Origin: Escherichia phage BAU.Micro_ELP-22
Strand: one strand, 5' to 3'
Length of the DNA: 64,000 nucleotides
Sequence record: OR699282.2
Each line of letters opens with the position of its first letter. The stretch's first letter is position 1. The translations under genes and the position numbers were made by a program. Of the stretch, positions 5,619 through 58,307 are shown piece after piece. The notes under the pieces were generated by a model, which did no database searches, was not told the DNA's origin, and was given only the letters and a program-made list of their open reading frames with translations.

Positions 5619-5974
5619 CATATGATTATTCTATGTACTATTATAAGTTACCTAAAGGATGGGACTTGTGCTGTAATCTTATTAAGGGCGACTCGGAACA
5701 TGAGTTGAGTTTATATATGCATTACAAAGATTCTTGTTTTAAATTTATTCATGTATCACATGACGACTATGACTATGAATCTGAGAGTCTTATAGATTAT
5801 ACAGTACTGGACGATGGCGAACTATTTCAGGCTGCATTAGTGTTTGATAAGAATAAGTACTCCTGTACATTTGAAGAAATGGTTTCTTTGCAAAATGAAA
5901 TGAAGAGATTTGAAAAAGAAAACGTATTTAATCCATCCCCATCAAGAACGAATAATTATTATTTCAATATATGA
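5615..5974 (+). CDS. hypothetical protein, FQ-motif family (LFQxALVFDK subgroup)
   Basis: 119-aa ORF; motif DDGELFQAALVFDKNKYSCTFEEMVSLQNEMK. Confidence 0.7.
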   Translation: MTYDYSMYYYKLPKGWDLCCNLIKGDSEHELSLYMHYKDSCFKFIHVSHDDYDYESESLIDYTVLDDGELFQAALVFDKNKYSCTFEEMVSLQNEMKRFEKENVFNPSPSRTNNYYFNI

Positions 5975-5983
5975 GATTATAAA

Positions 5984-6475
5984 ATGACATTACAGAGTTC
6001 ATTGGAAAAAGCAAAGAAGATTCATGAGTACATGAATATGGCAAAAGAAGGTTCAGTTTACGGTGTTTTCAAAGACACAAGTACTCAATATTATGTACCG
6101 GATAACCTCCTTTATAATGACTGCTCAGATACAGAAACGTGCGTACTGGATACAGAAACGTGCATACTAGATACCGACCCTAATGATTATGAATGCTTCA
6201 TTAATATGCATAATGAGTACATGGTCTATATTAATGATACAGATACCATCAACAGTACTGACAGCGATTCCAATGACATTATAATTCCGAGTGAAGTACT
6301 GGAAGGTCCGTGGGATAGTGAAGAGTATTACTTCCAACAAAGTACTGTATATGATAATGAAGTACTTGATGTTATTATAATTATGTGGTACTTTAAAAGT
6401 ATTGGTTCTGGGAACTTCTATTTCGATTACAAATACGTAAAGAAAACTGTAGATAACGGTATTAACAGGGGTTGA
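5984..6475 (+). CDS. hypothetical protein, FQ-motif family (EEYYFQ/WYFK subgroup)
   Basis: 163-aa ORF; N-term MTLQSSLEKAKKIHEYM; C-term VLEGPWDSEEYYFQQSTVYDNEVLDVIIIMWYFKSIG; contains in-frame 21-bp tandem repeat. Confidence 0.75.
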   Translation: MTLQSSLEKAKKIHEYMNMAKEGSVYGVFKDTSTQYYVPDNLLYNDCSDTETCVLDTETCILDTDPNDYECFINMHNEYMVYINDTDTINSTDSDSNDIIIPSEVLEGPWDSEEYYFQQSTVYDNEVLDVIIIMWYFKSIGSGNFYFDYKYVKKTVDNGINRG

Positions 6476-6476
6476 A

Positions 6477-6947
6477 ATGAGTTTAGAAAGAGCATTAGAG
6501 ATTGCGAAGTTAATTGATTTATGCAGCAAAGAAATTGTAGCAAATTGTCTTAATGGATATCTATTCAAGGAAGGTAAATCTTATTGTCGAATGAGATACG
6601 ATGACAGTAGTGAGTACATTCACATGTATGAAGAAAACTTAGATTCTTCTGAAACAACACTCAATGGGTGTGATGTTAATTTGGAAGATAATTACATGTA
6701 CTTCTGTCGTGATGCTGATATTTTAATACAAGATTCTGACATTATATCTGGTGCAGCAGAGAAACATCTTCCGTATTCAGTACTGGATAATGACTGGGGA
6801 AGTGAAGAGTTCTACTTCCAGCAGAATACTATCTACGAGGAATATGTGCTTGACAAGCTTGTCATTCTGTGGTACTTTAATAATACCGATTGTCCTAGCT
6901 TCTATCTGGACTTGGATCTACTACGAGTTATTAAAGAGGATATATGA
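6477..6947 (+). CDS. hypothetical protein, FQ-motif family (EEYYFQ/WYF subgroup)
   Basis: 156-aa ORF; motif DNDWGSEEFYFQQNTIYEEYVLDKLVILWYF. Confidence 0.75.
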   Translation: MSLERALEIAKLIDLCSKEIVANCLNGYLFKEGKSYCRMRYDDSSEYIHMYEENLDSSETTLNGCDVNLEDNYMYFCRDADILIQDSDIISGAAEKHLPYSVLDNDWGSEEFYFQQNTIYEEYVLDKLVILWYFNNTDCPSFYLDLDLLRVIKEDI

Positions 6948-7384
6948 GTTTAGCAAGTGCACTTAAACTGGCACACAAAATACATCACTTCCACGATAAC
7001 ATAAAAAGTGGTTTCTATGGTGATAAAGTAAGTGCATTTGGTAATGAGTATTATCTATCAGGTATAAAGACATACTCTGATGATATTTTACTTATGGGCC
7101 ATGATAAAGACAATACTATACAGTACTCTTCATGTAGTCAATATACTAGTTTCTTTGTATATATTCCAGGTACTAAGATTACTTTTGACACATCAAATAC
7201 ACCTGTTGACTTCGGGGTACTTGATGGGCCGTGGGGTACTGAAGAGTATTACTTCCAACAGAGTCTTATTTTTAACCAAGAAATGCTTGATTCCTTGGTT
7301 GTTTTGTGGTACTTTAAGGAATTGAATTTTGAACCCTTCTTCCTTGACTGGGGAGCATGTGAATATTTAAGTACAGGGGATTAG
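6944..7384 (+). CDS. hypothetical protein, FQ-motif family (EEYYFQ/WYFK subgroup)
   Basis: 146-aa ORF; motif LDGPWGTEEYYFQQSLIFNQEMLDSLVVLWYFK. Confidence 0.75.
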   Translation: MSLASALKLAHKIHHFHDNIKSGFYGDKVSAFGNEYYLSGIKTYSDDILLMGHDKDNTIQYSSCSQYTSFFVYIPGTKITFDTSNTPVDFGVLDGPWGTEEYYFQQSLIFNQEMLDSLVVLWYFKELNFEPFFLDWGACEYLSTGD

Positions 7385-7386
7385 TA

Positions 7387-7878
7387 ATGTCATTAGAAAG
7401 TGCATTGAAAGAAGCAAAGAAGATTCATGAGTACATGATTATGGTACAAGAAGGTTCAGTGCCTGGTGTGTATAAAACATCTGATACTGAATTTTTTGTA
7501 AAAGACCGCGACGATTATGATGAGTCAGAGATACATGCAGAAACGTTAGTACTACACACTGATACGGGTGATACTGATGACTGTGAATATCATATGTACA
7601 ATCAGTACATTAGTTATTGTAGAGATGAAGATATTATAATTTACAGCCCTGATTACGATGATTATGACACAATCATTCCGTATTCAGTACTAGAAGGTCC
7701 GTGGGATAGTGAAGAATATTACTTCCAGAATAGTACGTTGTACAATGAAGAAGAATTAGATGTTATTGTAATTATGTGGTACTTTAAAAGTATTGGTTCT
7801 GATAGTTTCTATTTCGATTATGAATACGTAGAGAATACTGTAGGGGAAGATAATGTCATTACAAAGTGCTCTGGATAA
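7387..7878 (+). CDS. hypothetical protein, FQ-motif family (EEYYFQ/WYFK subgroup)
   Basis: 163-aa ORF; N-term MSLESALKEAKKIHEYM; motif LEGPWDSEEYYFQNSTLYNEEELDVIVIMWYFKSIG; about 100 nt near-identical to 6295-6410. Confidence 0.75.
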   Translation: MSLESALKEAKKIHEYMIMVQEGSVPGVYKTSDTEFFVKDRDDYDESEIHAETLVLHTDTGDTDDCEYHMYNQYISYCRDEDIIIYSPDYDDYDTIIPYSVLEGPWDSEEYYFQNSTLYNEEELDVIVIMWYFKSIGSDSFYFDYEYVENTVGEDNVITKCSG

Positions 7879-8296
7879 AGCAAAAGAACTACAGGTATAT
7901 ATTGAAGATATCAAGGCTGGGAAGTTCGAAGAAGTATACAAAGCCGAGAATGGTAACTACTACAAGGATAGTGATTTTGCTACAACTACAGTTATTCTTG
8001 GGTTGAATTCCAAAAGTCCCGCAGATTTTTCACAATACAATCCAGATGCAGAATTTATCAGTTATGCTTATGGTGGTGAAATCCGTTTTTATAATCGCAG
8101 CAGACCTTTAAAATTGAACTTTGAAGTACTGAAAGGTCCGTGGGATAGTGAAGAGTATTACTTTCAGAATAGTACTTTGTATGATGATGAAGTACTAGAT
8201 ACTTTAGTTATTATGTGGTACTTTAAAAGTATTGATAGTACAAGGTTTTATTTGGATTATGAATATGTACGTGCCGAACATAAGGGTAAACGATGA
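7853..8296 (+). CDS. hypothetical protein, FQ-motif family (EEYYFQ/WYFK subgroup)
   Basis: 147-aa ORF; N-term MSLQSALDKAKELQ; motif LKGPWDSEEYYFQNSTLYDDEVLDTLVIMWYFKSID. Confidence 0.7.
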   Translation: MSLQSALDKAKELQVYIEDIKAGKFEEVYKAENGNYYKDSDFATTTVILGLNSKSPADFSQYNPDAEFISYAYGGEIRFYNRSRPLKLNFEVLKGPWDSEEYYFQNSTLYDDEVLDTLVIMWYFKSIDSTRFYLDYEYVRAEHKGKR

Positions 8297-8607
8297 AATT
8301 ATTATACAGTATTCAGTACATTCCAGGTACAATTAGTTTAATGTATTTCTTCGATCATGATAATTTCCAGCACCTTGCCGTTAGAAGATGTAATGAATCT
8401 TTAATGATTGAATATCTTCACGATTGTGATTATCTTCCTGACTTCCTTGAATGTGATTACAGAGATGATCATGAATCATTTATTTTTCAGGAATCACTTG
8501 TATGGGATAAGAGAATTAATTTTTATGCTTTACTTGAGATACAAAAACATGTGAAGTACTACTGGGATTACTTAATTACCCAAAAATATATAGAGATTGA
8601 AATATAA
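8293..8607 (+). CDS. hypothetical protein, FQ-motif family
   Basis: 104-aa ORF; motif DHESFIFQESLVWDKRINF. Confidence 0.65.
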   Translation: MKLLYSIQYIPGTISLMYFFDHDNFQHLAVRRCNESLMIEYLHDCDYLPDFLECDYRDDHESFIFQESLVWDKRINFYALLEIQKHVKYYWDYLITQKYIEIEI

Positions 8608-9080
8608 TGTACGAAAGTGATCTTAAGCACGCTGAGGAATTAGTTAATATAGTAAAGTTCTTTCAAAATAATGTAAAGTACTTAGACGACAAAGGGGCAT
8701 ATATTAGTACTATAAGTGTTGGTACAGATATTCTAGGATTAGGTAATGAATATAAGTACGAGTCCCATGATTATGATTTGGAATTCAAGTACTTCGAATG
8801 GAATCCTGGAACTTTCTATTCAATCGATGAAAGTGGGAAATATTTTGAATTCACCGAAGAAGACGTACTATTCTTAAATTCAGAAGATGCTTACTTCCAG
8901 TACAGTACTATATACCCAAATAGTGCATTAAGATCTTTAGTAGTTTTTAATGCATTTCTGAAAGAGAACTTTAATAATTCTATATTCATTGATTTAAATT
9001 ATGTATATGAACTAAATCAGGTGATATATATGGAGTCCAGAAAAAATGAGTTACGAAAGTGCAATCAAGAAAGCAAATGA
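8607..9080 (+). CDS. hypothetical protein, FQ-motif family
   Basis: 157-aa ORF; motif SEDAYFQYSTIYPNSALRSLVVF; N-term IVKFFQNN shared with next gene. Confidence 0.65.
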   Translation: MYESDLKHAEELVNIVKFFQNNVKYLDDKGAYISTISVGTDILGLGNEYKYESHDYDLEFKYFEWNPGTFYSIDESGKYFEFTEEDVLFLNSEDAYFQYSTIYPNSALRSLVVFNAFLKENFNNSIFIDLNYVYELNQVIYMESRKNELRKCNQESK

Positions 9081-12233: not shown

Positions 12234-12770
12234 ATGTTAGATGAAAAAATGAACAATGGAACACAATATAATCATCTTAAGTTAGATACATTCGAATCAG
12301 CTATCAGTACTGCACAAGATATAATTGATATTATCAAGTTCATTAAAGAAAATAAGTTCAAATGTTTGAAAATACTAAATCGTTCAATGTACCGTGATAA
12401 CAATATTCATGTATCAGTACGTAGACCGAAAGATAAAGAAAGTGGGAGAGATTTCTATAACAACAGTGAGCAGTTCGAATGTGAATATGATCCAGAATTC
12501 AGAGGCGGTTTCATGTGTTACAGTATAAAGGATACCTCACACATTGAGATACGTTCATCGAAAGGTGGCATACGTACATTAGAGTTCATTGATATAGTTT
12601 TAAATCAGGAATACTACTTTCAACTATCATTATTGTTTCCTGCATACGATTTAGGAGTTCTATTCATGTATAAGTACTTTTATGAGCACTGGAATGAAGA
12701 CTTCTATCTGGACTTAGAAGATTACCAATTAGTTTGGAAAGAAATGGTAGAACTTCGCAATCCCTCTTGA
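12234..12770 (+). CDS. hypothetical protein, FQ-motif paralog family
   Basis: In-frame ATG 12234 with GAGG 8 nt upstream preferred over track start 12186; motif NQEYYFQLSLLFPAYD. Confidence 0.6.
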   Translation: MLDEKMNNGTQYNHLKLDTFESAISTAQDIIDIIKFIKENKFKCLKILNRSMYRDNNIHVSVRRPKDKESGRDFYNNSEQFECEYDPEFRGGFMCYSIKDTSHIEIRSSKGGIRTLEFIDIVLNQEYYFQLSLLFPAYDLGVLFMYKYFYEHWNEDFYLDLEDYQLVWKEMVELRNPS

Positions 12771-12796
12771 CACCCACCGATTCTTTGTGATATAAT
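12767..12796 (+). promoter_or_regulatory. sigma70-like promoter with extended -10
   Basis: TTGACA (12767-12772), 18-nt spacer, TGaTATAAT (-10 hexamer 12791-12796); followed by inverted repeat CCCTTTA/TAAAGGG (12796-12818) in the leader. Confidence 0.6.
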
Positions 12797-12829
12797 CCCT
12801 TTATATTAATTGTAAAGGGTTATAACACA

Positions 12830-16105: not shown

Positions 16106-16616
16106 AGATGATATTCTAATTAGACTAATTAAGAGTTTAATAAAGTTCTCAAATAATGATGTCGATACATACAAAGTAGGGGATATTGAATTCAAATCAT
16201 TTGGTATGTACGGTGAGGACAAAACATATTATGCGTCAATGAAAATTCAAGATTTTCACGAGATGTTAATATCGTTATCATATGAAGATGTTGATCCAAG
16301 ATGGAGTTCCAGTATTTCACTATCGAGAATGGTAATTCGTAGTAAGCATCGTTACATTTCGTCAAAGAATACTCCTAACTTGATTAATATTGTGTTGAAT
16401 GAAAATACCAATCCTATATCTAAACTTGATATCGTACCGTTAACCGATGAAGTACTTTTTCAATTGAGTACCATTTGTGATGAAGATGTGATATCATGTA
16501 TGAAAATTTATGAGACGGTTGGGAGTGATATTCCCATGAACTATTACCTAACGATAGATGGAACATACCTCAGAGATGAAGCTCTAGCGTACATTGACAG
16601 TGTTTTACCAAAATAA
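16098..16616 (+). CDS. hypothetical protein, FQ-motif paralog family
   Basis: In-frame ATG 16098 overlapping upstream stop; motif TDEVLFQLSTICDEDV. Confidence 0.55.
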   Translation: MDKDDILIRLIKSLIKFSNNDVDTYKVGDIEFKSFGMYGEDKTYYASMKIQDFHEMLISLSYEDVDPRWSSSISLSRMVIRSKHRYISSKNTPNLINIVLNENTNPISKLDIVPLTDEVLFQLSTICDEDVISCMKIYETVGSDIPMNYYLTIDGTYLRDEALAYIDSVLPK

Positions 16617-16637
16617 AGACCCTTATTGGGTCTTTTT
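16617..16637 (+). terminator. rho-independent terminator
   Basis: AGACCC-ttatt-GGGTCT hairpin followed by TTTTT. Confidence 0.7.
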
Positions 16638-16648
16638 GTGTTTACGTC

Positions 16649-16677
16649 TTTACAGTAGCATTCAGATGTGTTATAAT
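16649..16677 (+). promoter_or_regulatory. sigma70-like promoter with extended -10
   Basis: TTTACA, 17-nt spacer, TGtTATAAT (-10 hexamer 16672-16677); 28 nt upstream of ATG 16705. Confidence 0.6.
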
Positions 16678-24019: not shown

Positions 24020-24493
24020 ATGGAGATTAAAACTGTTGAAAATGGGAAAATTGATGACATTTTAGAGTTGGACGCATTCAAAGTTCATGATATAATGTTT
24101 AATGTGAAGGACATTATTCAATGTCTATTTTTGTGTAGCAAGACAATGCATGATTTTTTTCACAACCCAAATACTAACGTTTTTATACTAACAATCAGTA
24201 CTGAAAACTCGTTTATCATGGGTATGCCTATGAGTACAAATGAACAATATATTGATTGTGTTATTCGTAATAACGATAGTATTACGCCACAATCTGAAGT
24301 ACGTAAAAAGAAAAACACCTACACAATCAAAGATGATAAAATTATGATGTGCTGTAGTAAAGGGTTTATATTAGATAATTTTATCATCAAAGACAGTTAT
24401 CACGACTTTAAAGTGTCTGAAAATCAATCCAATGTAGTTCTTTATGCGAGTGACATAGAAAGTCTAACAGTTAAAGATCCCAGTTTGGAGTAA
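24020..24493 (+). CDS. hypothetical protein
   Basis: 157-aa ORF. Confidence 0.5.
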   Translation: MEIKTVENGKIDDILELDAFKVHDIMFNVKDIIQCLFLCSKTMHDFFHNPNTNVFILTISTENSFIMGMPMSTNEQYIDCVIRNNDSITPQSEVRKKKNTYTIKDDKIMMCCSKGFILDNFIIKDSYHDFKVSENQSNVVLYASDIESLTVKDPSLE

Positions 24494-25825: not shown

Positions 25826-25864
25826 TTGTGAACATATTAAATCTTTATGATATAATGTTCACAT
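25826..25864 (+). promoter_or_regulatory. extended -10 promoter embedded in an inverted repeat
   Basis: TGaTATAAT (-10 hexamer 25851-25856) flanked by TGTGAACAT (25827-25835) and ATGTTCACA (25856-25864). Confidence 0.5.
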
Positions 25865-25887
25865 CTTTTTTGATAATGGAGATATAG

Positions 25888-26629: not shown

Positions 26630-26640
26630 TAAACCAAAGG

Positions 26641-26670
26641 ACGGGATATAATATCTCGTCTTTTTTTTTG
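26641..26670 (+). terminator. rho-independent terminator
   Basis: GACGGGAT-ataat-ATCTCGTC hairpin (one G-U pair) followed by T9. Confidence 0.65.
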
Positions 26671-26681
26671 TCTGGAGATAT

Positions 26682-27530
26682 ATGAAACTTTATCTAATCG
26701 TTGACTACAGTAAGGGTTATTATGACTACGCAGAAGAATCTGAAGGGTATTGCTCGTCTACTAATGTCAATGTACGCACCAGTAGTACACATGAGCATGA
26801 ATCTATTACAAACCTAAAAGATTTCATCGCATATCGAGCATTTGAAAAGAATTTCTGTCGTAGTAGATATTCGAAGTTTGAGTACCCGTTAATTGATGTT
26901 CCTGATGAATTGATGTTCCAGTTAATGCTCACTGGAGTACAAGATTATGATTACATCGCGTACAATCACATTACTAAGAAAATTTATATCGGTACGTCAA
27001 CACATGACATTTCTATGTATGCATCATGCCCCGATGATCGAATGAATGATAGAAAATCATACTATAGTGGATCAGTTGGTTCAAATGATTCATTAAATAA
27101 AAATTTATTCTTTGAGTACGAGTTTGATAATCATCGAGGGAAAAAAGACCGAGAAGATTATTGTACTGAAATTGATAGTACCAATGGATATGAAGAAGTG
27201 AAAGAAGCGATAATGCCATATATCCTTGACAAGTACTACAAAGATTTTCAGTACTGTAGTAATTTTCTAATCCGAAATTCTATCATAATCGGTCGTCAAA
27301 GTACTGCATTCTCTAAGTACTACAATGATTCCCCTGTTGCTGAAAATGAAAACTGTAATATTCTCTCAATCCCACGTGAAGATATGGTATTCATGTTCAC
27401 ATCTTTCATTGAAGATGATGAGTTGTATGTAAAAAACAAGCACAGGTTCATGCCAAGTAAGATTGAGGTTATGAGAAGCTTAAGTGCAGATATCTTAACT
27501 AATTTCACTGAAAAAACAGAATACAACTGA
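26682..27530 (+). CDS. hypothetical protein with FQ-like motif
   Basis: 282-aa ORF; motif VPDELMFQLMLTGVQDYDY in N-terminal third. Confidence 0.55.
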   Translation: MKLYLIVDYSKGYYDYAEESEGYCSSTNVNVRTSSTHEHESITNLKDFIAYRAFEKNFCRSRYSKFEYPLIDVPDELMFQLMLTGVQDYDYIAYNHITKKIYIGTSTHDISMYASCPDDRMNDRKSYYSGSVGSNDSLNKNLFFEYEFDNHRGKKDREDYCTEIDSTNGYEEVKEAIMPYILDKYYKDFQYCSNFLIRNSIIIGRQSTAFSKYYNDSPVAENENCNILSIPREDMVFMFTSFIEDDELYVKNKHRFMPSKIEVMRSLSADILTNFTEKTEYN

Positions 27531-27560
27531 GACATACCATAAGTTTATGATATAATGTAA

Positions 27561-27594
27561 GGTGACAGCAGAATATGTTGTCGCCTTTTTTTTT
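27561..27594 (+). terminator. putative rho-independent terminator
   Basis: GGTGAC...GTCGCC hairpin (one G-U pair) followed by T10; preceded by TGATATAAT at 27548-27556. Confidence 0.5.
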
Positions 27595-28132
27595 AATCCT
27601 GAAAGGTTCCATATGGAAATGATTAAAGCCTAATCCACTCGAAAAGTAGAGGGTAGATGAGTAGTCCTTTCAGTACGAACAGCAAATGAAACCCGTTAGA
27701 TGATGGCATAGTTTGAACCACTCACGGCAATGCGGCTGTATAAAGAACTCCAATAGGATAAAGAGAGTTCCTCGATAGACATATAAGGATCGCACCTTAC
27801 CAATTATCTAAGGGAGATTTCATGAGAAATTTGCGGTCGTAATTTATACAAAATAGTTGCGTCCAAAATTCGTGAAATCAAATACAAGTACTGGTCATAT
27901 GGTATTTGTATTATGTGTCGGGATGTTTAAGACCGACGACCGTTGCTACAAGAACCGCGATAGAGAGAAACAGAGCAACCCGCTTTCGTCTCGTAAGAGA
28001 ATTCGTGATATGAACTATGTGAAGGCCACCAGCGTCAAACTTTTTTGTTCTTTCCCCTGCGGGGGGATGAAATATGCTCAAGCAAACCCCGTCAATATTA
28101 ATTAAAAGAAAATAGTACTTGTAGAATTAGAC

Positions 28133-29291: not shown

Positions 29292-29821
29292 AAGAAACAT
29301 GCGTATTAACTTTTGGACGTGTTAATCCCGTACATCGTGGACATGGTTTAGTTTTTGAAAAGGCCAAAACATTACAAGAACAGTACAATGCTGATTTAAA
29401 AATATATCTAAGCACCAGTACTGACAATATAAAAAACCCACTCCCACCTGAACTAAAAATGTATTATACAGAGGGATTTTATCCTTCAGTGCAAGAGAAC
29501 ATCTACACAGAAGACAATCTGTTTGATATAATGAGAGAACTGGATGGAAAGTACTTAGATGTTCTTTTCATATGTGGTTCTGACCGTATTGATTCTTTTC
29601 AAAAAACTCTTGACATGTACAATGGTAAGTTGTATAATTTTTGTAGTATAAAAGTAATTCAAGCAGGTATTGACCGTAATGTAAGTCAATATAGCTCAAC
29701 ACAAATGCGTAACTTCGCAAAAAATGAAGATTTTGATAGTTTTCGTGAGTTTTTACCTGGAAATGACGAGAACTTAAAAATACAATTATTTGAAGACGTT
29801 ATAAAATACATGAGGAAATAA
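29288..29821 (+). CDS. nucleotidyltransferase, NMN/NaMN adenylyltransferase-like
   Basis: N-terminal HxGH motif (FGRVNPVHRGHG) and C-terminal SSTxxR-type motif (YSSTQMRNF) of the cytidylyl/adenylyltransferase fold; start overlaps MTase stop. Confidence 0.55.
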   Translation: MKETCVLTFGRVNPVHRGHGLVFEKAKTLQEQYNADLKIYLSTSTDNIKNPLPPELKMYYTEGFYPSVQENIYTEDNLFDIMRELDGKYLDVLFICGSDRIDSFQKTLDMYNGKLYNFCSIKVIQAGIDRNVSQYSSTQMRNFAKNEDFDSFREFLPGNDENLKIQLFEDVIKYMRK

Positions 29822-31314: not shown

Positions 31315-31577
31315 ATTATAAAGATTTCCTACTAACATACAAGATTATTCGAGATTTAGCACACGACAATGATAGCCCTAGTCTAGAAGACACATGCACT
31401 GAAATGATTCATACAATTCGTGGTAAGATTAAAAAAAAATTCAGTACTGTTATTATTGGTGATGACCATGCAGAATTTTCTGATATAATCATTAGACGTG
31501 ATGGTAAAGTTGAGGTTCAGTACTACACTGATTTTGGATTTACCAGTATTCCGTTGGAGATATTCCCTTGGGATTAA
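31311..31577 (+). CDS. hypothetical protein, small paralog family 2
   Basis: 88-aa ORF; LLTYKIIRDL N-term. Confidence 0.6.
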   Translation: MNYKDFLLTYKIIRDLAHDNDSPSLEDTCTEMIHTIRGKIKKKFSTVIIGDDHAEFSDIIIRRDGKVEVQYYTDFGFTSIPLEIFPWD

Positions 31578-33640: not shown

Positions 33641-33680
33641 AATGGGTAAGGAACAATAATTAACACAAGGAGTGTGTGAA

Positions 33681-34409
33681 ATGCTTGACCGTATCCGTTT
33701 CGCTACAGAGATGGCGAATGAATTAAACATGGCAAATTTCCAAATGTTAACATCAGTAATGGCTGAACATGCATGTGCTTATTCTGTAAGTGGTGTGCAG
33801 TGTGGTCAGGAGAATATGTTAGCAGATGTTTATAGTGAAGTGCAAAGTAAGCAATATAGTGTAAAGACATATAAGGATAAGTTTGTTAGTCTTTATATGA
33901 ACGAAGATATTGCCGAAGACCGTAAATTCACTGATTTTATTATTGAACGCCGAGTATCAGGTGTATCTAATCCTAATGCATCAAGCGAGGAAGTTTTTGC
34001 AGAAGTACTGAAAGATATATACGAAAATGAATTAAAAAGTAAGAATCATTACAATGTACGTGAAACTAACACAGTGCTCTTGGGATATGATGAAGACGAA
34101 GAATACTATTATTTTCGTATGACTGAAGTTCCTTTTGAATACAAATCTCCATATACAACTACAGTGAAAGAATTTACTGAAAAAAGTAAAAACTTCATGA
34201 AGCATGAAGGAAATCGTTGTAGTATAAATGGTTATGACGAAAATGGCATTCACATTTATGAATGGGTTCACCCAAATTGTCAGACATACACTCGTTGCTT
34301 GAAAAAACGTTATAATTTAGAAGAGCATGAATCATTCTATTTTAAAGTTAAGAAGCAAGGTTACACTCGCCCCGCCGATTCTGAATTGATGGGTATGATA
34401 TATTTCTAA
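33681..34409 (+). CDS. hypothetical protein
   Basis: ATG 33681 with AAGGAG RBS (track used GTG 33672); 242 aa, no recognisable motif. Confidence 0.6.
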   Translation: MLDRIRFATEMANELNMANFQMLTSVMAEHACAYSVSGVQCGQENMLADVYSEVQSKQYSVKTYKDKFVSLYMNEDIAEDRKFTDFIIERRVSGVSNPNASSEEVFAEVLKDIYENELKSKNHYNVRETNTVLLGYDEDEEYYYFRMTEVPFEYKSPYTTTVKEFTEKSKNFMKHEGNRCSINGYDENGIHIYEWVHPNCQTYTRCLKKRYNLEEHESFYFKVKKQGYTRPADSELMGMIYF

Positions 34410-38255: not shown

Positions 38256-38544
38256 TTTACTATATATAAAGTCAGTAGAAGCTGAAATTAAAAATTCAGT
38301 ACAAACTATCGTCGATGAAATGATTGACAAATACAAGAGCAATCTTATTGGGAAGAAAGTCAGATGTTGGGATTACACATTCAAACACTGGTACGATTCC
38401 GAGATTGTGAAAGTTGATGTGAATACTGATAGTAATGGTCTAATTAATGGTATTGCGTATATTGGTGTTTTAATACGCAAGGGAACACCACAGGAATGGC
38501 TAACTTATCATAATATAGAGCATGTTAAATTTTTAGAGGATTAA
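38233..38544 (+). CDS. hypothetical protein, small paralog family 3
   Basis: ATG 38233 preferred; core KSNLIGKKVRCWDYTFKHWYDSEIVKVDV. Confidence 0.5.
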   Translation: MINNAQSNLLYIKSVEAEIKNSVQTIVDEMIDKYKSNLIGKKVRCWDYTFKHWYDSEIVKVDVNTDSNGLINGIAYIGVLIRKGTPQEWLTYHNIEHVKFLED

Positions 38545-38547
38545 AGG

Positions 38548-39480
38548 ATGCCAACTATCACACTAACAGTTGGATTGCCTGGGTGTGGTAAAACTACATG
38601 GGCAGTGCAAGAGATTAAAAACGCCAAATCCAAGACTATCAACATCAACCGTGATGATATTCGTGAATCTATGGCTGGGTCACATGATGCTTACAAATTC
38701 AACGATGCTAATGAGAAGTACGTAACTAATTTACAGTTCAGTGCAGCAAATTCAGCAGCAGAGAATGGTTGGAACATCATCATATCCGATACGAACCTTA
38801 AACAACATTTCCGTAATCTATGGAAAGTATGGGCTAAAGATAATGGCTATGATTACAAAGAAAAGAACTTCTATGATGATTTTGTACCTAATGAAGACCG
38901 TGGTGCAGATGTTCATGAATTCTTTAAGATTAAAGAGTTCGTAAAACTTTGCAAGAAATATAATCTCCAGCGTGAGCGTTCAGTACAAGATAATATCATT
39001 GACACTATGGCAGATACGTACTATTATAGTAAAGCATTGCACATTGGTTACTATGGTAATTCACGAGAAGCTGCTATTATCGTTGATATCGACGGTACTC
39101 TTGCTCATAAATGGGGTCGTAATCCTTACGATGAAAGTACTGTTCTTCAGGATACACCTGATGAAGAAGTTATTTTGTCTATTATCGCTGAAGCAGTTTT
39201 TCATAAACGCAAGATTATCGTCATGAGTGGGCGTACTGAAGGGTGTCGTGCTGATACCGAACAGTGGCTTAAGAATTGGGGTGTTCCTTACGATGCATTG
39301 TTTATGCGAGATATCGATGATAAACGTCCTGATGATGTTGTAAAATTCGACCTGTACATGAAAAATGTGGTTGATCATTACGATGTTAAAAAGGTATATG
39401 ATGACCGCGATCAAGTTGTATTCATGTGGCGTAAACTACTTGGGTTGAAAGTTTTCCAAGTGGCTGAAGGAAATTTCTAA
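38548..39480 (+). CDS. pseT: polynucleotide 5'-kinase/3'-phosphatase
   Basis: Walker A P-loop GLPGCGKTTW at N-terminus; HAD-type phosphatase motif VDIDGTLA; tail DDRDQVVFMWRKLLGLKVFQVAEGNF parallels T4 Pnk C-terminus. Confidence 0.85.
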   Translation: MPTITLTVGLPGCGKTTWAVQEIKNAKSKTININRDDIRESMAGSHDAYKFNDANEKYVTNLQFSAANSAAENGWNIIISDTNLKQHFRNLWKVWAKDNGYDYKEKNFYDDFVPNEDRGADVHEFFKIKEFVKLCKKYNLQRERSVQDNIIDTMADTYYYSKALHIGYYGNSREAAIIVDIDGTLAHKWGRNPYDESTVLQDTPDEEVILSIIAEAVFHKRKIIVMSGRTEGCRADTEQWLKNWGVPYDALFMRDIDDKRPDDVVKFDLYMKNVVDHYDVKKVYDDRDQVVFMWRKLLGLKVFQVAEGNF

Positions 39481-39484
39481 TACA

Positions 39485-39516
39485 AAAGGGATCATATATT
39501 GGTCCCTTTTTCTTTT
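39485..39516 (+). terminator. rho-independent terminator
   Basis: AAAGGGATC-atatatt-GGTCCCTTT hairpin followed by T-run. Confidence 0.65.
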
Positions 39517-39705
39517 AAGGTACATTATAGTGAATGTAACAACACAGATGTTATTACGAAAAGACTACTTAGAAAATATAGAACGATACTATAGATTGTC
39601 TTTGTATGAAAATAAGCATAAAAATTATAGTTTTGATAAACTACTAAATTCCAGTACTGATGATTATCTATTTTCATCAATGTTTTATGTGAGAGGTTTA
39701 TTATA

Positions 39706-40805: not shown

Positions 40806-41111
40806 ATGGATATACAAACATTCAATAAACTTAAGTACTATGATGATGGTTTTGCATTAATAATTAACGAACTTGATGGAATACCATACGAATATCATAA
40901 TCAAGTAATGAAGATAATAAAATGTATATGTGAAGAATTAAAAAGTATATTTAAAAATGAATATGTTTATGATTTAGGTAATAGTAGCAAAAAACTATAC
41001 ATAAAGAAATTCTGGGGAACGCATTGCGGTTTGATGGTCGATTTAGGTTTAAGTTTAGACGATAATTCTGAATCATGTTCATTATATATAGATGAAATGC
41101 GAATATCATGA
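40806..41111 (+). CDS. hypothetical protein
   Basis: 101-aa ORF. Confidence 0.5.
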   Translation: MDIQTFNKLKYYDDGFALIINELDGIPYEYHNQVMKIIKCICEELKSIFKNEYVYDLGNSSKKLYIKKFWGTHCGLMVDLGLSLDDNSESCSLYIDEMRIS

Positions 41112-41151
41112 GACGTATCAGAATTCGGTGATATAATTTGATTACATCACC
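41109..41151 (+). promoter_or_regulatory. extended -10 promoter flanked by inverted repeat
   Basis: TGaTATAAT (-10 hexamer 41132-41137) between GGTGAT (41127-41132) and ATCACC (41146-41151); GGGAGA RBS follows. Confidence 0.5.
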
Positions 41152-41495: not shown

Positions 41496-42102
41496 CAGTG
41501 CATATGTAATCGGTATTATTATTTCTGGTATGCTTGCATATAACTATAACAGAAGTGTTCTAGGTTATGTAGTACTTGGTACAGTACTAAGTCCAGTGAT
41601 TGCCATTGGTCTTCTTGTTATGCTAGGTGAGAAAAATACAAGCTTCTTTATTACTAAAGAACTTGATAAAATCACTCCAGCACCAGAAACAGTTATTCCA
41701 GAAGTTAAAGAAGAAGTTAAAGAAGTTGAAGTTCAAATGCAAGTTAAAGTGTATAATACACTTGAAGAAACTGATCCTAAAGTTGTAGTGAATGTAGTTC
41801 CAGTAGTTGAAGATGTGAAACCAAAAGCTCCTAAAGTACAGAAAAATACTAAAACTGCAAAGAAAGCTCGTTACACTAAAGGTAAGAACAAAGGTAAATC
41901 TAAGGATGAACCACAACTAGGTGTTCATGACCATACTGCACAAATTGCAACGGCAGCGACCGCAGCAGCAATCGTAACATCACCAATCTACAACAATGAT
42001 GATTACAGTGATTATAGCCGTCACAGCAGTTCTTCCTCTGATTCTTGTTCCTATGATAGCTCTAGTTCTGATTCAAGTTCATCGTCTGGAAGTTGTGATT
42101 AA
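41473..42102 (+). CDS. membrane protein with Ser/Asp-rich C-terminal tail
   Basis: N-terminal hydrophobic helices, central KEEVKEVEVQ region, C-terminus SSSSSDSCSYDSSSSDSSSSSGSCD. Confidence 0.55.
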   Translation: MLTPIILSSAYVIGIIISGMLAYNYNRSVLGYVVLGTVLSPVIAIGLLVMLGEKNTSFFITKELDKITPAPETVIPEVKEEVKEVEVQMQVKVYNTLEETDPKVVVNVVPVVEDVKPKAPKVQKNTKTAKKARYTKGKNKGKSKDEPQLGVHDHTAQIATAATAAAIVTSPIYNNDDYSDYSRHSSSSSDSCSYDSSSSDSSSSSGSCD

Positions 42103-42649: not shown

Positions 42650-42900
42650 TGTTCAACACTGACTTATCACATTTGCGATATCTTATGTCTTTGGCTGATG
42701 ATTTTATAAATGATCTGAAGCCAAAATATATTGGTCAAGAAGTACGATTAATAAACTCCAGAGGGTATGGAAAGTATATTATTACTGATATGTATATTAG
42801 TGGTGGTGAATGGCGTTTTAAAATTAATACTTATCTTAAAGATGGTTCTTTTGCTGGAACACAAGTTACTAAACACACTAATATTATATGGTTGGAGTAA
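42649..42900 (+). CDS. hypothetical protein, small paralog family 3
   Basis: 83-aa ORF; core INDLKPKYIGQEVRLINSRGYGKYIITDMY. Confidence 0.55.
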   Translation: MFNTDLSHLRYLMSLADDFINDLKPKYIGQEVRLINSRGYGKYIITDMYISGGEWRFKINTYLKDGSFAGTQVTKHTNIIWLE

Positions 42901-42902
42901 TA

Positions 42903-43646
42903 ATGAAACACTTCTTAGAAGTAACTGTACCTGATGATAAAGATTTATACATTGTAGGTGATTTGCATGGTAATGGTAAACTATGGGATGCTACAGTGAA
43001 AGAATTTGGTATTACACACAATGATTATGTTTTCAGTGTAGGTGATATTATCGACCGTGGAGAACAAAATTCAAAGCTCCTTTTTGAATTTTTGTTCGGA
43101 GAAAATCGTTACATGATTGCGGGTAATCATGAGATGATGTGCGTTGATTCGGAAACACTTCGAGATTGGTATCATTGTTGGATAAGTAATGGTGGTGATA
43201 AATTCCTTGATGAAGTTGGAGGAACAGGCATTCAATTCTTTCGTCAGTACTTAAAGGATCTCCCTATGATTATCCAAATCAATCACCGAGGATTGAAGAT
43301 TGGGTTAGTTCATGCTGGAGTTCCGTTGGAATATACAACATGGGAACGATTTGTTAATGGGACAAAATCACTTAGTGCTGATATAATTGATAAGTGCTTG
43401 TGGGATAGAAAAACATTCGATTATTGTAGAACTAATAATACATATTATGCACCTAAGTTAGATGGAGTGCATTGTGTCTTTAGTGGACATACAGCAGTTA
43501 CAGACCCACTCATTTACGGTAATCGCATTTGGATTGATAGTCAGTTCTTGACGGGTGACTTAACTCTCGCTACTCCACAAAGTGGTGGGATGAGATATTT
43601 ACGTAAAGAAAAAGATGAGTACTCATTCAATCGTTTCAAAAGGTAA
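42903..43646 (+). CDS. Ser/Thr protein phosphatase (PPP-family metallophosphoesterase)
   Basis: Motifs GDLHGN, GDIIDRGE, GNHEMM in canonical order; ATG 42903 with GGAG RBS preferred over track start 42888. Confidence 0.75.
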   Translation: MKHFLEVTVPDDKDLYIVGDLHGNGKLWDATVKEFGITHNDYVFSVGDIIDRGEQNSKLLFEFLFGENRYMIAGNHEMMCVDSETLRDWYHCWISNGGDKFLDEVGGTGIQFFRQYLKDLPMIIQINHRGLKIGLVHAGVPLEYTTWERFVNGTKSLSADIIDKCLWDRKTFDYCRTNNTYYAPKLDGVHCVFSGHTAVTDPLIYGNRIWIDSQFLTGDLTLATPQSGGMRYLRKEKDEYSFNRFKR

Positions 43647-52219: not shown

Positions 52220-52246
52220 AAAAAGGAGCCGTATGGCTCCTTTTTT
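52217..52246. terminator. bidirectional rho-independent terminator
   Basis: A-run, GGAGCC-gtat-GGCTCC hairpin, T-run; sits between convergent + and - strand genes. Confidence 0.75.
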
Positions 52247-52247
52247 G

Positions 52248-52625
52248 TTAACCAGGGAGGTTACAATAATACAAATCCCAAGGGTGATATTTCATCGCAC
52301 CAGTACTCAATTTAATTTTATGAAACTGGAATGATTCGGCAAATGCACTATCGTCAATCTTAATACAAAAAGTGTTTTTGGCTAGAGTTGGTGCAATTTC
52401 CAATGCTGTTTTAGATGCATCTAATCTAATTTTATCTTTATCATAACTAGTGATAGTTACAAAACGATAAACATTAAAATCAGTATCAATGAGATCGTAA
52501 ACACAACTAGAACGTTGATTAAAGATGTTCAAGTTATATTTCAATTCACCGTTTATATTAGCTGCGGTTACACAAAACCCGCCGATATTGAATGGTAGTT
52601 TACCTTGTGCTGCGATAGCTTTCAT
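52248..52625 (-). CDS. hypothetical protein (only minus-strand gene in window)
   Basis: 125-aa ORF on - strand bounded by the bidirectional terminator. Confidence 0.5.
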   Translation of the reverse strand: MKAIAAQGKLPFNIGGFCVTAANINGELKYNLNIFNQRSSCVYDLIDTDFNVYRFVTITSYDKDKIRLDASKTALEIAPTLAKNTFCIKIDDSAFAESFQFHKIKLSTGAMKYHPWDLYYCNLPG

Positions 52626-52695
52626 ATTTTATTTCCTTTTTTAAATATAAGTATGAAATATATTTGTTTTTTACATCAGATGCACCATGAACTAG

Positions 52696-52724
52696 TTGAC
52701 AAAACATCAGTGGTATGATATGAT
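52696..52724 (+). promoter_or_regulatory. sigma70-like promoter
   Basis: TTGACA (52696-52701), 17-nt spacer, TGaTATGAT (52719-52724); TTAAGT(A/G) triple repeat follows at about 52770-52810. Confidence 0.5.
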
Positions 52725-52850
52725 CTGTTATAAACTGTACACCTTAAGTTTTATTTTTAAAAATTTGAGTTAAGTACAGAAAAAGTTTGACTTAAGTGTT
52801 TAAGTACTATATTATTTATATCTTCCTAAACAAAATTGAGGACTTGTTAT

Positions 52851-54611: not shown

Positions 54612-55364
54612 ATGATATCAGAAAAATTTATAAGCAATGAAGGTAAAAAGCGATTACTGATTATATCAGGTGCAGGACTTTCTGTTGAAAGTGGTATGGA
54701 ACCTTTTCGATTTGATGATGGTTTGTGGGATACATTTAAAATTAATGATGTATGTAACATTGCTAGTTTAACTACAAAATATCATGTTGTTCATTCTTTC
54801 TATAATACATTACGTGTAAAATTGGGACAATGCGAACCCAATGCAATGCATTATTTTATAAAATCGTTAGAAGATCAATATGGTGATTGCTTCCTTCATA
54901 TGACTTCTAACATGGATGATCTTTATACTCGTATCGGTGGTCATGAGCTTAAACTTCATGGAAACTTGTGCGAAGTTATTGAAAATTATAGTATCAATTC
55001 TGATGATTATAATGTTATTAACTGCGGATACGAACCATACATACCAAAACATGATGTTTTTGCTAAACCAAATGTAGTAATGATTGGAGAATATCATCGT
55101 TATGTTGATGGTATTCGCTTACCAATTTACGAAGAACGAAATAATGTGTTGAAATCTCTTAATGAAAATGATACAGTTATTGTAATTGGTAGTAGCGATA
55201 CAGTACTGGTGTGGTCGAGATTAGCAGCAGCATTGCCATGTTATAGTGTTAATGTTAACATTCGTAAAAATGATAATGATTTTTTGTTTAATGAAAAAGT
55301 TATCAAGCCAGCAACCAAAGCAATACCTCAACTAGAGACTATAATTAAGGAACGTATGAAATGA
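54612..55364 (+). CDS. Sir2-family NAD-dependent deacylase/ADP-ribosyltransferase-like protein
   Basis: LLIISGAGLSVESGMEPFRFDDGLW (NAD-binding GAGxSxxSGIxxFR), catalytic-His context ELKLHGN, VIVIGSSDTV; ATG 54612 with AAGGA RBS. Confidence 0.65.
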   Translation: MISEKFISNEGKKRLLIISGAGLSVESGMEPFRFDDGLWDTFKINDVCNIASLTTKYHVVHSFYNTLRVKLGQCEPNAMHYFIKSLEDQYGDCFLHMTSNMDDLYTRIGGHELKLHGNLCEVIENYSINSDDYNVINCGYEPYIPKHDVFAKPNVVMIGEYHRYVDGIRLPIYEERNNVLKSLNENDTVIVIGSSDTVLVWSRLAAALPCYSVNVNIRKNDNDFLFNEKVIKPATKAIPQLETIIKERMK

Positions 55365-58041: not shown

Positions 58042-58045
58042 TATT

Positions 58046-58078
58046 GTATGGGACATAATGTCCCATACATGATATAAT
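58046..58078 (+). promoter_or_regulatory. perfect palindrome overlapping extended -10 promoter
   Basis: GTATGGGACAT-a-ATGTCCCATAC (58046-58068), then TGaTATAAT (-10 hexamer 58073-58078); GGGACA sits at the -35 position. Confidence 0.5.
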
Positions 58079-58109: not shown

Positions 58110-58307
58110 ATGGCTAAACAACCTAAGAAACAAGAACCAGTAGCAAAAGTTAAGAAAGAGAAAGTTATTCAATCTAAAGAACAACGTATGTACGAACAAC
58201 GTAAGAGTGAAACCCTATCCGGTCTACAAGCTCTACGCAAACAAGGTGTACTAACTCGTGCTCAATACCGTGAGATAGTAGCACAAAAAGGTTATTGGGG
58301 CATTTGA
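58110..58307 (+). CDS. small basic hypothetical protein
   Basis: 65 aa with AAGGAG RBS; lysine-rich. Confidence 0.55.
   Translation: MAKQPKKQEPVAKVKKEKVIQSKEQRMYEQRKSETLSGLQALRKQGVLTRAQYREIVAQKGYWGI

Follow-up and report, generated by a model that had tools for sequence, protein, structure and literature searches.

We argue, with moderate confidence, that the inverted repeats around a recurrent promoter sequence of this phage most plausibly represent RNA hairpins in transcripts that come from upstream, superimposed on sigma-70-type promoters. The phage is an Asteriusvirus, a RaK2-like jumbo coliphage that reuses the host-type sequence TGATATAAT ahead of many genes. The window is the whole stretch of 64,000 nucleotides that was analysed (Escherichia phage BAU.Micro_ELP-22, OR699282.2). 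With gaps of only 50-70 nt, the hairpin and the promoter come to lie on top of each other. Each hairpin would belong functionally to the transcript arriving from the upstream unit. A polymerase reading through from upstream would transcribe both arms, and the hairpin would then form. It would end or cap the upstream RNA at 27548 (a canonical terminator), 25848 (a hairpin plus U-run) and 58070 (the place of the phoH terminator), and at 12788 it would bury the ribosome-binding site of the next gene. A polymerase initiating at the embedded promoter would start ~7 nt past the -10, inside or beyond the repeat. Its RNA would therefore lack the 5' arm, escape termination and be translatable. That transcription starts about 7 nt past the -10 is an established rule, and all predicted starts given here were placed solely by it.

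The initial annotation had listed TGATATAAT at positions 12788, 25848, 27548, 33632, 41129, 48833 and 58070 of the window, and it is present at all seven. The search for all copies that it called for, run on the window, adds five exact ones: 24088, 29524, 31481 and 43379 on the + strand and 54660 on the - strand. The count of 12 compares with 3.35 +/- 1.65 in dinucleotide shuffles of the window, and 0 of 100 shuffles reached it. The + (coding) strand carries 11 of the 12. A related extended -10, TGTTATAAT, lies at 16669 in addition to these exact sites. Eight copies are in short intergenic gaps or have a -35-like element, TG(G/A)GACA or TTGACA, 16-18 bp upstream, and the promoter-like copies stand 36-49 nt from the next start codon. 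There are 10 sites with xxGACA or TTGACA at the 16-18 bp spacing. If a -35 match of 4/6 or better is required, 22 extended -10 sites lie on the + strand and 6 on the - strand. A generic sigma-70 consensus scan of the window is not enriched over shuffles (121 vs 126; 102 vs 110), so only the specific TGATATAAT class is informative. The promoters persist at orthologous junctions of four diverged clades (A4, Turkey5/JNE01, EcMJ and slurp01/G17) whose flanking DNA is 73-92% identical. The DNA upstream of the promoters is A/T-rich, and they would be used, in early or middle infection, at the head of early-type blocks of small ORFs. Strand-specific, intergenic, with a -35-like element at 16-18 bp and conserved at orthologous junctions, these promoter-like elements do form one recurrent class, as had been proposed. 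Judged by its sequence, TGATATAAT serves as extended -10 (TGn + TATAAT) in a promoter class of sigma-70 type that recurs in this phage. The predicted promoters appear to begin new transcription units in an array of closely packed genes on a single strand. It must be noted that each site has only a small set of 3-8 distinct ortholog sequences, and that the CMSTMSU record, which has many frameshifts, carried no weight in comparisons. Distant junctions were taken from BLAST matches, and a related-locus search with a 128-aa protein gave only 121Q.

T4 early promoters are of the sigma-70 extended -10 (TGnTATAAT) type and have GTTTAC as their -35. The promoters of this phage resemble them in having TG at -15/-14, a perfect TATAAT and a -35-like element at 16-18 bp. 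They differ in the -35, which is mostly TG(G/A)GACA rather than TTGACA or GTTTAC. T1 and T2 of TTGACA are usually replaced here, and extended -10 promoters tolerate such replacement. The phage lineage encodes an RpoD-like sigma that is a candidate user of the class beside host sigma-70. A literature search for a promoter or transcript study of an Asteriusvirus found none, only predictions for CBB. In this Pectobacterium phage a 'Promoter 1' (divergent RpoD-like, TGAAACG...TGnTATAAT) and a 'Promoter 2' (RpoD-like) rest on MEME prediction only, and the Promoter 1 class was noted in Cronobacter phage GAP32 too (PMC5259590). The CBB authors tied the 'divergent RpoD-like' class to DNA-metabolism genes (PMC5259590), and the -35 variant of the window matches that class. 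CBB is of the same lineage and has TGAAAC(G/A) or TTGACA, 13-14 nt to TG, then TATAAT; several of its entries are TGATATAAT. The CBB and GAP32 orthologs of our junctions carry CBB-class motifs. The Asteriusvirus -35 variant is intermediate between the two CBB classes. The CBB publication is silent on overlapping hairpins and on RNA genes behind these promoters.

Some copies carry a promoter signature and little else. P33632 (33613-33640, +) is GGGACA-16-TGATATAAT with a 40-nt conserved leader ahead of the ATG at 33681. P48833 (48813-48841, +), TTGGACA...TGATATAAT, stands ahead of a ClpP-like gene (48876), has no hairpin, and is conserved as TAGACA...TGATATAAT in four other clades. Other copies lie within genes. 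At 24069-24096 (+), TTGGAC(G)-TGATATAAT falls within the ORF 24020-24493 (codons H-D-I-M), which is annotated as a CDS in G17. Its -35 and -10 are invariant in five clades despite synonymous changes in the spacer, and the copy is possibly an internal promoter. At 43359-43387 (+), GGGACA-17-TGATATAAT falls within a Ser/Thr phosphatase gene (42888-43646). A4 has TGATACAAT there and Turkey5 has GGAACA, structure is absent (z = +0.15), and the copy appears to be under weak or no selection. We set aside as chance the copy at 29524-29532 (+), which lies inside a cytidylyltransferase gene and lacks a -35 at any usable spacing, and that at 31481-31489 (+), a case of the same kind. The sole minus-strand copy (54660-54668), within a + strand gene, was also rejected as chance.

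All three inverted repeats of the initial annotation exist in the window. Their chance level was taken from random 89-nt windows of the same sequence, with loops limited to 30 nt. Of these, 2% contain a perfect repeat of 9 bp or longer and 0.3% one of 11 bp or longer. Two of the nine promoter windows contain such repeats, one of 9 and one of 12 bp. The mean best arm is 7.1 in promoter windows and 5.4 in random ones (resampling P ~0.002). RNA folding z-scores are -4.5 at 12788, -2.1 at 25848, -2.9 at 27548 and -2.9 at 58070, and are weak at 41129 (-1.0; -0.96), 33632 (-0.75) and 48833 (+0.7). By this measure a significant hairpin is absent at three of eight intergenic promoters (33632, 41129 and 48833). 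On the chance-level rates and the z-scores, we credit about half of the promoters with a non-random repeat. The statement that repeats bracket several copies is right to that extent and fails at 41129, which is indistinguishable from chance. P41129 (41108-41151, +) has TGAGACG at 41109-41115, containing a stop TGA, and TGATATAAT at 41129-41137. Its GGTGAT/ATCACC (41127-41151) is present as 6 perfect bp and extends to imperfect 11-nt arms with one mismatch (GGTGATATAAT / ATTACATCACC). That is a chance-level repeat. Its 3' arm is degraded to ATTACAACACT in EcMJ, and the junction is present in only two clades. We rejected this repeat as a functional element on its chance-level z and poor conservation.

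The junction after phoH (58045-58078, +) links a hairpin to the upstream gene. The perfect palindrome reported at 58046-58068 is present, with arms of 12 bp rather than 11 (TGTATGGGACAT / ATGTCCCATACA, 58045-58069, one central base). It begins 4 nt past the phoH stop codon (-15.7 kcal/mol). The 5' arm supplies the -35 GGGACA (58050-58055), and the 3' arm is directly followed by TGATATAAT (58070-58078). Transcription is predicted to start at ~58085; the gene starts at 58110. In Turkey5 (GCGTCCA...TGGACGC) and A4 (GTGTTCA...TGAACAC) the orthologous repeat brackets the -10, unlike the upstream position in the window, and the arms of these two differ by two compensatory double changes. A hairpin or terminator stands right after phoH in every relative, and a canonical terminator stands directly past the phoH stop in 12 of 12 distant phoH loci. 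In JNE01, where phoH and the promoter lie apart because of a 1.3-kb insertion, the hairpin has remained behind phoH and the relocated promoter lacks one. The 58070 repeat is best read as a probable terminator-position hairpin of the phoH transcript.

At 25848 the promoter and its repeat occupy 25827-25871 (+), with the left arm as -35 region and TGATATAAT at 25848-25856. The repeat had been drawn from 25827 to 25864, one base too far: TGTGAACAT (25827-25835) pairs with ATGTTCACA (25855-25863), giving 9 perfect bp with 19 nt between the arms. A T-run, TCTTTTTT, follows directly 3' of the right arm (25864-25871). The predicted start is ~25863 and the gene start 25888. The stem is A/U-rich, with dG of -4.5 to -11 kcal/mol (-10 in the window). 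Across six distinct orthologs 98% of cells are paired and the changes are one-sided G·U only; four of the six are asymmetric as duplex DNA yet pair as + strand RNA. The T-run is present in every Asteriusvirus ortholog. Arms and T-run co-occur only in Asteriusvirus, while Munch and GAP32 have the promoter without repeat or T-run. Double compensatory changes are absent from the stem in all six orthologs, and constraint on the -35 plus the initial transcribed sequence could thus account for the conservation of the stem. The repeat is best read as what looks like a terminator-like hairpin plus U-run.

The hairpin at 12788 has a different relation to the next gene. P12788 (12767-12796, +) has its -35 TTGACA at 12767-12772, overlapping the stop codon TGA of the upstream gene (12768-12770), then an 18-bp spacer and TGATATAAT at 12788-12796. 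Its predicted start is ~12803, and its ortholog is present in slurp01, vB_Ec-M-J and A4. The RNA hairpin spans 12786-12829 (+; MFE -17.6 kcal/mol, z = -4.5). Its 5' arm (12786-12806) holds the -10 and the predicted +1 region. The Shine-Dalgarno AAAGGG (12814-12819) of the next gene, which starts at 12830, falls within its 3' arm. EcMJ and A4 preserve the stem through two compensatory pairs and G·U changes. CCCTTTA/TAAAGGG in the window corresponds to CTTTTTC/GAAAAGG in A4, whose 18-bp stem (-19.1 kcal/mol) covers the AUG as well as the Shine-Dalgarno. By the folding model, only RNA that reads through from upstream would have its ribosome site hidden by this hairpin. Such pairing of Shine-Dalgarno or AUG in the 3' arm is found solely here, and not at 25848, 41129 or 58070. 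T4 genes e, soc, 49 and I-TevI have an inhibitory hairpin whose 5' strand is encoded by DNA that contains a promoter, and proximal transcripts escape the hairpin (PMC3014915). The 12788 junction is alike in having the promoter in the 5' arm and the Shine-Dalgarno (plus the AUG in A4) in the 3' arm, if the start is where we infer it. It differs in that its internal promoter is of sigma-70 type and not T4 late (TATAAATA), and the arrangement is predicted at one junction only.

P27548 (27528-27556, +) has TGAGACA at 27528-27534 and TGATATAAT at 27548-27556. Its -35-like element contains the upstream stop codon TGA, and its predicted start is ~27561-27565. All Asteriusvirus clades have this promoter, and seven further genera have it in the form TGAAAC(G/A)...TG(N)TATAAT. 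An intrinsic terminator (27559-27594, +; 12-pair stem, 5-nt loop, T9), annotated as a terminator in G17, begins 2-4 nt past the -10; the predicted start falls inside its 5' arm. The stem (27559-27587) has ~-17 kcal/mol in the window. Among 13 phages its sequence is wholly different, with full covariation and dG of -9.5 to -17.5 kcal/mol, and it always forms, a constant 4-5 nt from the -10 and always with a T-run. If transcription began at 27561-27562, the RNA would retain a 9-10-bp stem plus U9 and might still be terminated.

The hairpins can be compared with Rho-independent terminators. The one at 27559-27594 is canonical, 25827-25871 has a stem and U-run, and 58045-58069 is in the place of the phoH terminator. 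Each of the three has a stable stem-loop that follows a stop codon. The hairpins at 58070 (ATGATATAAT...) and 12788 (TTATAACAC) have no U-tract 3' of the stem, so intrinsic termination at these two is only putative. In usual terminator-promoter junctions the hairpin lies upstream and is not interleaved with the -35, -10 or +1 as it is here. The window has a conventional junction of this kind at 16615-16677 (+), an intrinsic terminator (16615-16635) and then TTTACA-17-TGTTATAAT (16649-16677), conserved in slurp01, EcMJ and Turkey5.

Directly downstream of the 27548 terminator lies an unannotated structured RNA candidate of ~510 nt (27595-28104, +). It has >91% identity between clades, compared with 73-81% for the flanking genes. 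Compensatory changes occur at 40 of 81 predicted pairs, and 0 of 500 shuffles reach 40. Rfam searches with this RNA (gathering, E<=1 and E<=10) gave no match, and no tRNA or tmRNA was found. It has no detectable similarity to the RNA-seq-defined ncRNA001, 002 and 004 of PA5oct. Each genome has 2-5 dispersed copies, each behind its own promoter of the TGATATAAT class. In eight genera the same promoter class stands ahead of all 23 complete copies of this ORF-less RNA gene. The 27548 promoter thus precedes a candidate multi-copy RNA supported by covariation. One can imagine a wider scenario, which we offer as a tentative possibility. TG(R)(R)AC(R)-N13/14-TG(N)TATAAT would define a promoter class particular to the lineage of RaK2-like jumbo phages, with the phage RpoD-like sigma and not host sigma-70 as its possible reader. 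One conserved job of the class would be driving the dispersed ~510-nt RNA family absent from Rfam. The promoter inside a terminator at 27548, kept across eight genera, would then be a selected insulator or attenuator of that RNA, beyond compaction.

The repeats had also been suggested to be RNA hairpins at transcript 5' ends. That is partly right: they would be RNA hairpins, formed in RNA that arrives from upstream. By geometry they cannot open the transcript of the promoter itself, since the 5' arm is at or upstream of the predicted start. A scenario in which they are 5'-terminal stem-loops that stabilise the RNA, or in which 27548 is an attenuator read through via a phage factor (lambda-Q-like), is unlikely in our view. 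The constant 4-5 nt between -10 and hairpin at 27548 in eight genera fits an extreme-5'-end hairpin equally well, and a strong promoter with an immediate terminator is the layout of lambdoid late promoters, which also counts for this scenario. However, at 25848, 58070, 12788 and 41129 the 5' arm is at or upstream of the -10 and is excluded from the promoter's RNA. The paralogous RNA genes have the same promoter class without such a hairpin; their terminator lies conventionally upstream of the -35.

It is about as improbable that the repeats have no function and are by-products of a partly self-complementary consensus, A/T-rich DNA and hairpin-prone intergenic regions. The -35 ...GACAT faces TATAATGT..., so ACAT/ATGT complementarity follows from the consensus itself. 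The DNA is 68% A+T, and intergenic regions naturally contain hairpins. The repeat at 41129 and the 6-7-bp repeats at other copies are indeed at chance level, the 25848 stem has no double compensatory change, and a TATAAT in the loop of the terminator at 26636-26664, which we also considered, is not conserved. Against this, two of the nine sites have repeats (9 and 12 bp) whose background rates are 2% and 0.3%, and z-scores run from -2.1 to -4.5 at four junctions. Compensatory changes are found at 12788, 27548 and 58070, and arms and T-run appear together at 25848.

We consider it very improbable that the repeats are operators, that is, dyad binding sites for different regulators gating otherwise identical promoters. 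They do overlap the -35, -10 or +1 region, where repressors act, and the phage encodes hundreds of uncharacterised small proteins. A dyad over the core promoter recalls lambda OR/OL, LexA boxes and CRP sites, and 25848 even has the CRP-like TGTGA and TCACA. A CRP site there (TGTGA...TCACA) is ruled out by a spacing of 27 nt between half-sites rather than 6, and the 28-bp centre-to-centre spacing is atypical for an operator. The repeats differ in sequence, as had been noted. Each has its own sequence and register, and no dyad or half-site is common to two promoters. Among close relatives the sequence of the arms is not kept: they covary or take up another register to the -10. Wherever a stem position departs from Watson-Crick pairing, it is G·U on the + strand, and four of the six 25848 orthologs are asymmetric as duplex. 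The JNE01 hairpin segregates with the upstream gene. No less improbable is a cruciform or hairpin extruded from supercoiled DNA that exposes the -10 single-stranded and tunes strength or marks origins: the N4 virion RNA polymerase offers an analogy in its hairpin promoters, and the -10 is in the loop between the arms at 25848 and in the Turkey5 and A4 orthologs of 58070, but stems of 7-12 bp with loops of up to 19 nt make extrusion unfavourable, G·U-only substitutions point to RNA, the position of the repeat relative to the -10 is not constant, and the promoters have a full sigma-70 consensus and not the N4-type hairpin motif.

With the repeats read as hairpins of upstream transcripts, the overlap of hairpin and promoter is ordinary phage gene organisation. 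The operator idea, which implies a set of unknown regulators, can be put aside. In the enterobacterial members of this jumbo-phage lineage most genes are unannotated, and the promoter class together with the hairpin logic would, if validated, give testable transcription-unit boundaries. Tracing one promoter also exposed an unannotated, strongly covarying RNA gene family. The same hairpin logic would also show how a 350-kb phage can insulate adjacent units within gaps of 50-70 nt.

The recurrent extended -10 element TGATATAAT (TGn plus TATAAT) is found 12 times in the window. Dinucleotide shuffles have 3.35 +/- 1.65 copies, and 0 of 100 reach 12. Eleven of the 12 copies are on the + strand. The seven copies listed by the initial annotation (starting at 12788, 25848, 27548, 33632, 41129, 48833 and 58070) are all present, and it missed those at 24088, 29524, 31481, 43379 and 54660(-). 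Those seven are the ones in short intergenic gaps. Each has a -35-like hexamer ending GACA 16-18 bp 5' of it (the heptamers are TGAGACA, TGAGACG, TGGGACA, AGGGACA, TTGGACA, GTGAACA and CTTGACA). A start codon with a Shine-Dalgarno is found 40-49 nt 3' of each, except at 27548, which an RNA element follows. Sites at 779, 52716 and 16669 (TTTACA-17-TGTTATAAT, start codon 36 nt on) belong to the class too, differing at one or two positions. The intra-ORF copies at 24088 and 43379 also have a -35, and those at 29524, 31481 and 54660(-) are probably chance occurrences. A generic TTGACA/TATAAT scan of the window found no enrichment, so the promoter evidence comes from this particular class. Counting extended -10 sites whose -35 matches at 4/6 positions or more gives 22 on the + strand versus 6 on the - strand.

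Around the finding, 6 kb of sequence matches Escherichia phage SP27 at 95.8% identity and PBECO4, 121Q and G17 at 93-95%. All four phages are RaK2-like jumbo myoviruses (Asteriusvirus, ~350 kb). Syntenic stretches of 40-70 kb were taken from A4, Turkey5, JNE01, vB_Ec-M-J, slurp01 and part of G17, which have 74-92% identity to the window at 25.5-26.3 kb. Wherever one of these relatives has the junction, it keeps the -35-like element and TG(N)TATAAT, and the divergence is in the spacer and flanks (16669, 24088, 25848, 27548, 33632, 41129, 48833 and 58070). The 12788 promoter is kept in slurp01, vB_Ec-M-J and A4, and Turkey5 has no promoter at the syntenic position examined. Orthologous junctions in other genera have GGGACA-14-TGATATAAT (Munch) and TGAAACA-13-TGGTATAAT (Cronobacter phage GAP32). 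MEME predicted two classes in Pectobacterium phage CBB, one RpoD-like and one "divergent RpoD-like" (TGAAACG...TGnTATAAT), the second also in GAP32, and these junction motifs match the two classes (PMC5259590). Enrichment, strand, position and retention at orthologous junctions, together with this match, make the promoter claim well supported, for a kind of promoter already described. It must be noted that the "early" timing given to them is not established. No transcript data for Asteriusvirus were found in the literature. These phages encode their own RpoD-like sigma.

Three sites deserve separate mention. The site at 24069-24096 (TTGGACG-TGATATAAT) lies in ORF 24020-24493, where it is read as H-D-I-M. 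Its -35 and -10 do not vary among five clades, its spacer has synonymous substitutions, and it is possibly an internal promoter. The 40-nt leader after the 33632 promoter (33641-33680, …ggaacaataattaacacaaggagtgtgtgaa) hardly varies across the five clades, unlike the promoter spacer and upstream gene. This conservation exceeds the need of a Shine-Dalgarno alone. After the polynucleotide-kinase terminator (39484-39529; 41870-41915 of A4 segment L002) A4 has an exact TGATATAAT; the 3' arm and U-run of the terminator take the place of a -35, so it has none. At that spot the window shows just TACATTATA. Comparison of the two points to promoter gain or loss at terminator junctions within the genus.

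The three inverted repeats reported at these promoters all exist, and only some exceed chance. The repeat at 25848 has 9 perfect bp (25827-25835/25855-25863), the one at 58070 has 12 perfect bp each side of one base (58045-58069), and the one at 41129 has 6 perfect bp, extending to 11 if one mismatch is allowed (41127-41151). Among random 89-nt windows, 2% contain a perfect repeat of 9 bp or more and 0.3% one of 11 bp or more. Folding z-scores of the + strand RNA are -4.5 at 12788, -2.1 at 25848, -2.9 at 27548 and -2.9 at 58070, and ~-1 to +0.7 at 41129, 33632, 48833, 24088 and 43379. Three intergenic promoters have no hairpin. The initial annotation overlooked the strongest hairpin, at 12788, and the canonical terminator (12 pairs + T9) 2-4 nt after the -10 at 27548, which the G17 authors annotated. 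A TATAAT look-alike (GGGATATAATATC) in the loop of the strong terminator at 26636-26664 is not conserved in G17 or A4 and was rejected as coincidental.

The modal +1 of E. coli RNA polymerase is seven bases after the -10. This rule predicts starts at ~12803, 25863, 27561-27565, 41144 and 58085. The 5' arm is upstream of the predicted start in every case, and at 27548 is truncated by it; if transcription begins at 27561-27562, the terminator there would stay largely intact. This implies that the promoter's own RNA cannot form the full hairpin and that upstream read-through RNA can. We argue that the hairpins would have two uses. Those at 27548, 25848 and 58070 would end or cap the upstream RNA. 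The first is a true terminator, the second a stem plus TCTTTTTT, and the third a hairpin that takes the position of the phoH terminator; no U-tract is present there or at 12788. At 25848 every Asteriusvirus clade has the arms and T-run, and Munch and GAP32 have the promoter with neither. The 25848 stem is weak, with a 19-nt loop and no double compensatory change. The hairpin at 12788 would instead hide the next gene's ribosome site. The Shine-Dalgarno is in its 3' arm, and in A4 an 18-bp stem (-19.1 kcal/mol) covers the AUG too. T4 genes e, soc, 49 and I-TevI have a promoter within the DNA for the 5' strand of an inhibitory structure, which is the same logic (PMC3014915).

Scarce space would be what interleaves hairpin and promoter. 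The + strand carries essentially all window genes, most of them small and abutting or overlapping, and only ~30 inter-ORF gaps reach at least 30 nt. G+C is 29-38%, mostly 30-36%. The -35 often overlaps the upstream stop codon, the TGA doubling as part of TTGACA (12768-12770), TGAGACA (27528-27530) or TGAGACG (41109-41111). Where room exists the conventional order, terminator then promoter, is found (16615-16677 and the paralogous RNA-gene copies). Within the 616-nt gap at 52220-52835, A- and T-runs flank a hairpin (~52222-52245), like a bidirectional terminator. The gap also contains the one sizeable minus-strand ORF (52248-52625) and, at 52696-52724, the consensus promoter TTGACA-17-TGATATGAT. 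A4 has extra minus-strand genes at its counterpart (5814-9021 of segment L003), two annotated as putative structural proteins.

One can imagine a scenario where the repeats are 5' hairpins or attenuators of the promoter's own transcript. We consider this unlikely given where the other 5' arms lie. The repeats could also have no function, as ACAT/ATGT complementarity is inherent in the class consensus (-35 ...GACAT, -10 TATAATGT); we give this a low probability. In the small ortholog sets of each junction, pairing is kept without sequence. The 12788 stem is CCCTTTA/TAAAGGG in the window versus CTTTTTC/GAAAAGG in A4. The 27548 stem differs wholly in sequence among 13 phages of eight genera and always folds (-9.5 to -17.5 kcal/mol). 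At 58070 the hairpin is between -35 and -10 in the window and vB_Ec-M-J, and a different one brackets the -10 in Turkey5 (GCGTCCA-tgctataa-TGGACGC) and A4 (GTGTTCA-ttgctataa-TGAACAC), these two being two compensatory double substitutions apart. At 25848, 98% of cells are paired across six distinct sequences, and two pairs vary U-A/U-G and A-U/G-U, which makes those repeats asymmetric as duplex DNA. Non-Watson-Crick positions in these stems are G·U on the + strand, with no A·C pair seen, and no half-site recurs between promoters.

The hairpin also follows the upstream gene. A canonical terminator is a few bases after the phoH stop in 12/12 distant loci, and a promoter follows it in RaK2 and two metagenomic phages. 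Between phoH and the small downstream gene JNE01 has a 1.3-kb insertion, a 426-aa Cys-rich ORF absent from the window and other clades (38375-39655 of segment L020), which may be mobile or homing-type. A GC-rich hairpin is still directly after the phoH stop, and the promoter is now 3' of the insertion without a hairpin. This is a natural experiment separating the two. Conserved pairing without conserved sequence, G·U positions, the lack of a shared half-site and the upstream-gene linkage leave the operator-like binding sites of the initial annotation unsupported and very improbable. A DNA cruciform is hardly credible either. The sequences favour RNA hairpins over operators, and the terminator-overlap model with its T4 precedent, which replaces the operator reading, is somewhat better than an even bet as a composite.

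Relatives have no annotation in the 550-700 nt after the 27548 promoter and terminator. The ~510-nt element there (27595-28104, + strand) has 91-99% identity across Asteriusvirus clades, with 1-2-nt indels, versus 73-81% for neighbouring genes. It is found at 67-76% identity, almost always unannotated, in Mimasvirus, Eneladusvirus, Munch-like, Erwinia, Serratia, Yersinia and Xanthomonas jumbo phages. In a 12-sequence alignment 81 pairs are predicted, and 96% of their cells are paired. Compensatory changes are in 40/81 pairs, versus 22 +/- 2.3 in shuffles (0/500) and 6-11 in slid controls. Rfam gave no match even at E<=10, no tRNA or tmRNA was found, and the abundant ncRNAs in PA5oct RNA-seq have no detectable similarity. 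A search pattern made of two invariant blocks picks up 2-3 scattered copies in each genome (~90, 193 and 327 kb in 121Q) and BLAST 4-5 places, across eight genera of RaK2-like jumbo phages (orthologs L023-L030, at ~200-740 of each segment; paralogs L036, L038, L033, L050, L040, L039 and L049). TG(N)TATAAT precedes 23/23 complete copies, with TGAAAC or TGAGAC upstream in nearly all. The conserved 5' helix of the paralogs begins 9-25 nt after the -10, which implies the promoter is dedicated to the RNA. Only at the 12 loci of the window-type ortholog do a hairpin and T-run separate the -10 from the RNA, at a constant 4-5 nt past the -10.

These promoters and their hairpins are an ordinary kind of feature, made a little more notable by how deeply the promoter-inside-terminator layout is conserved and by the RNA family. 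The element is a candidate for a new large structured RNA family. It lies outside the initial claim, is the most novel thing seen, and adds independent evidence for the promoter class.
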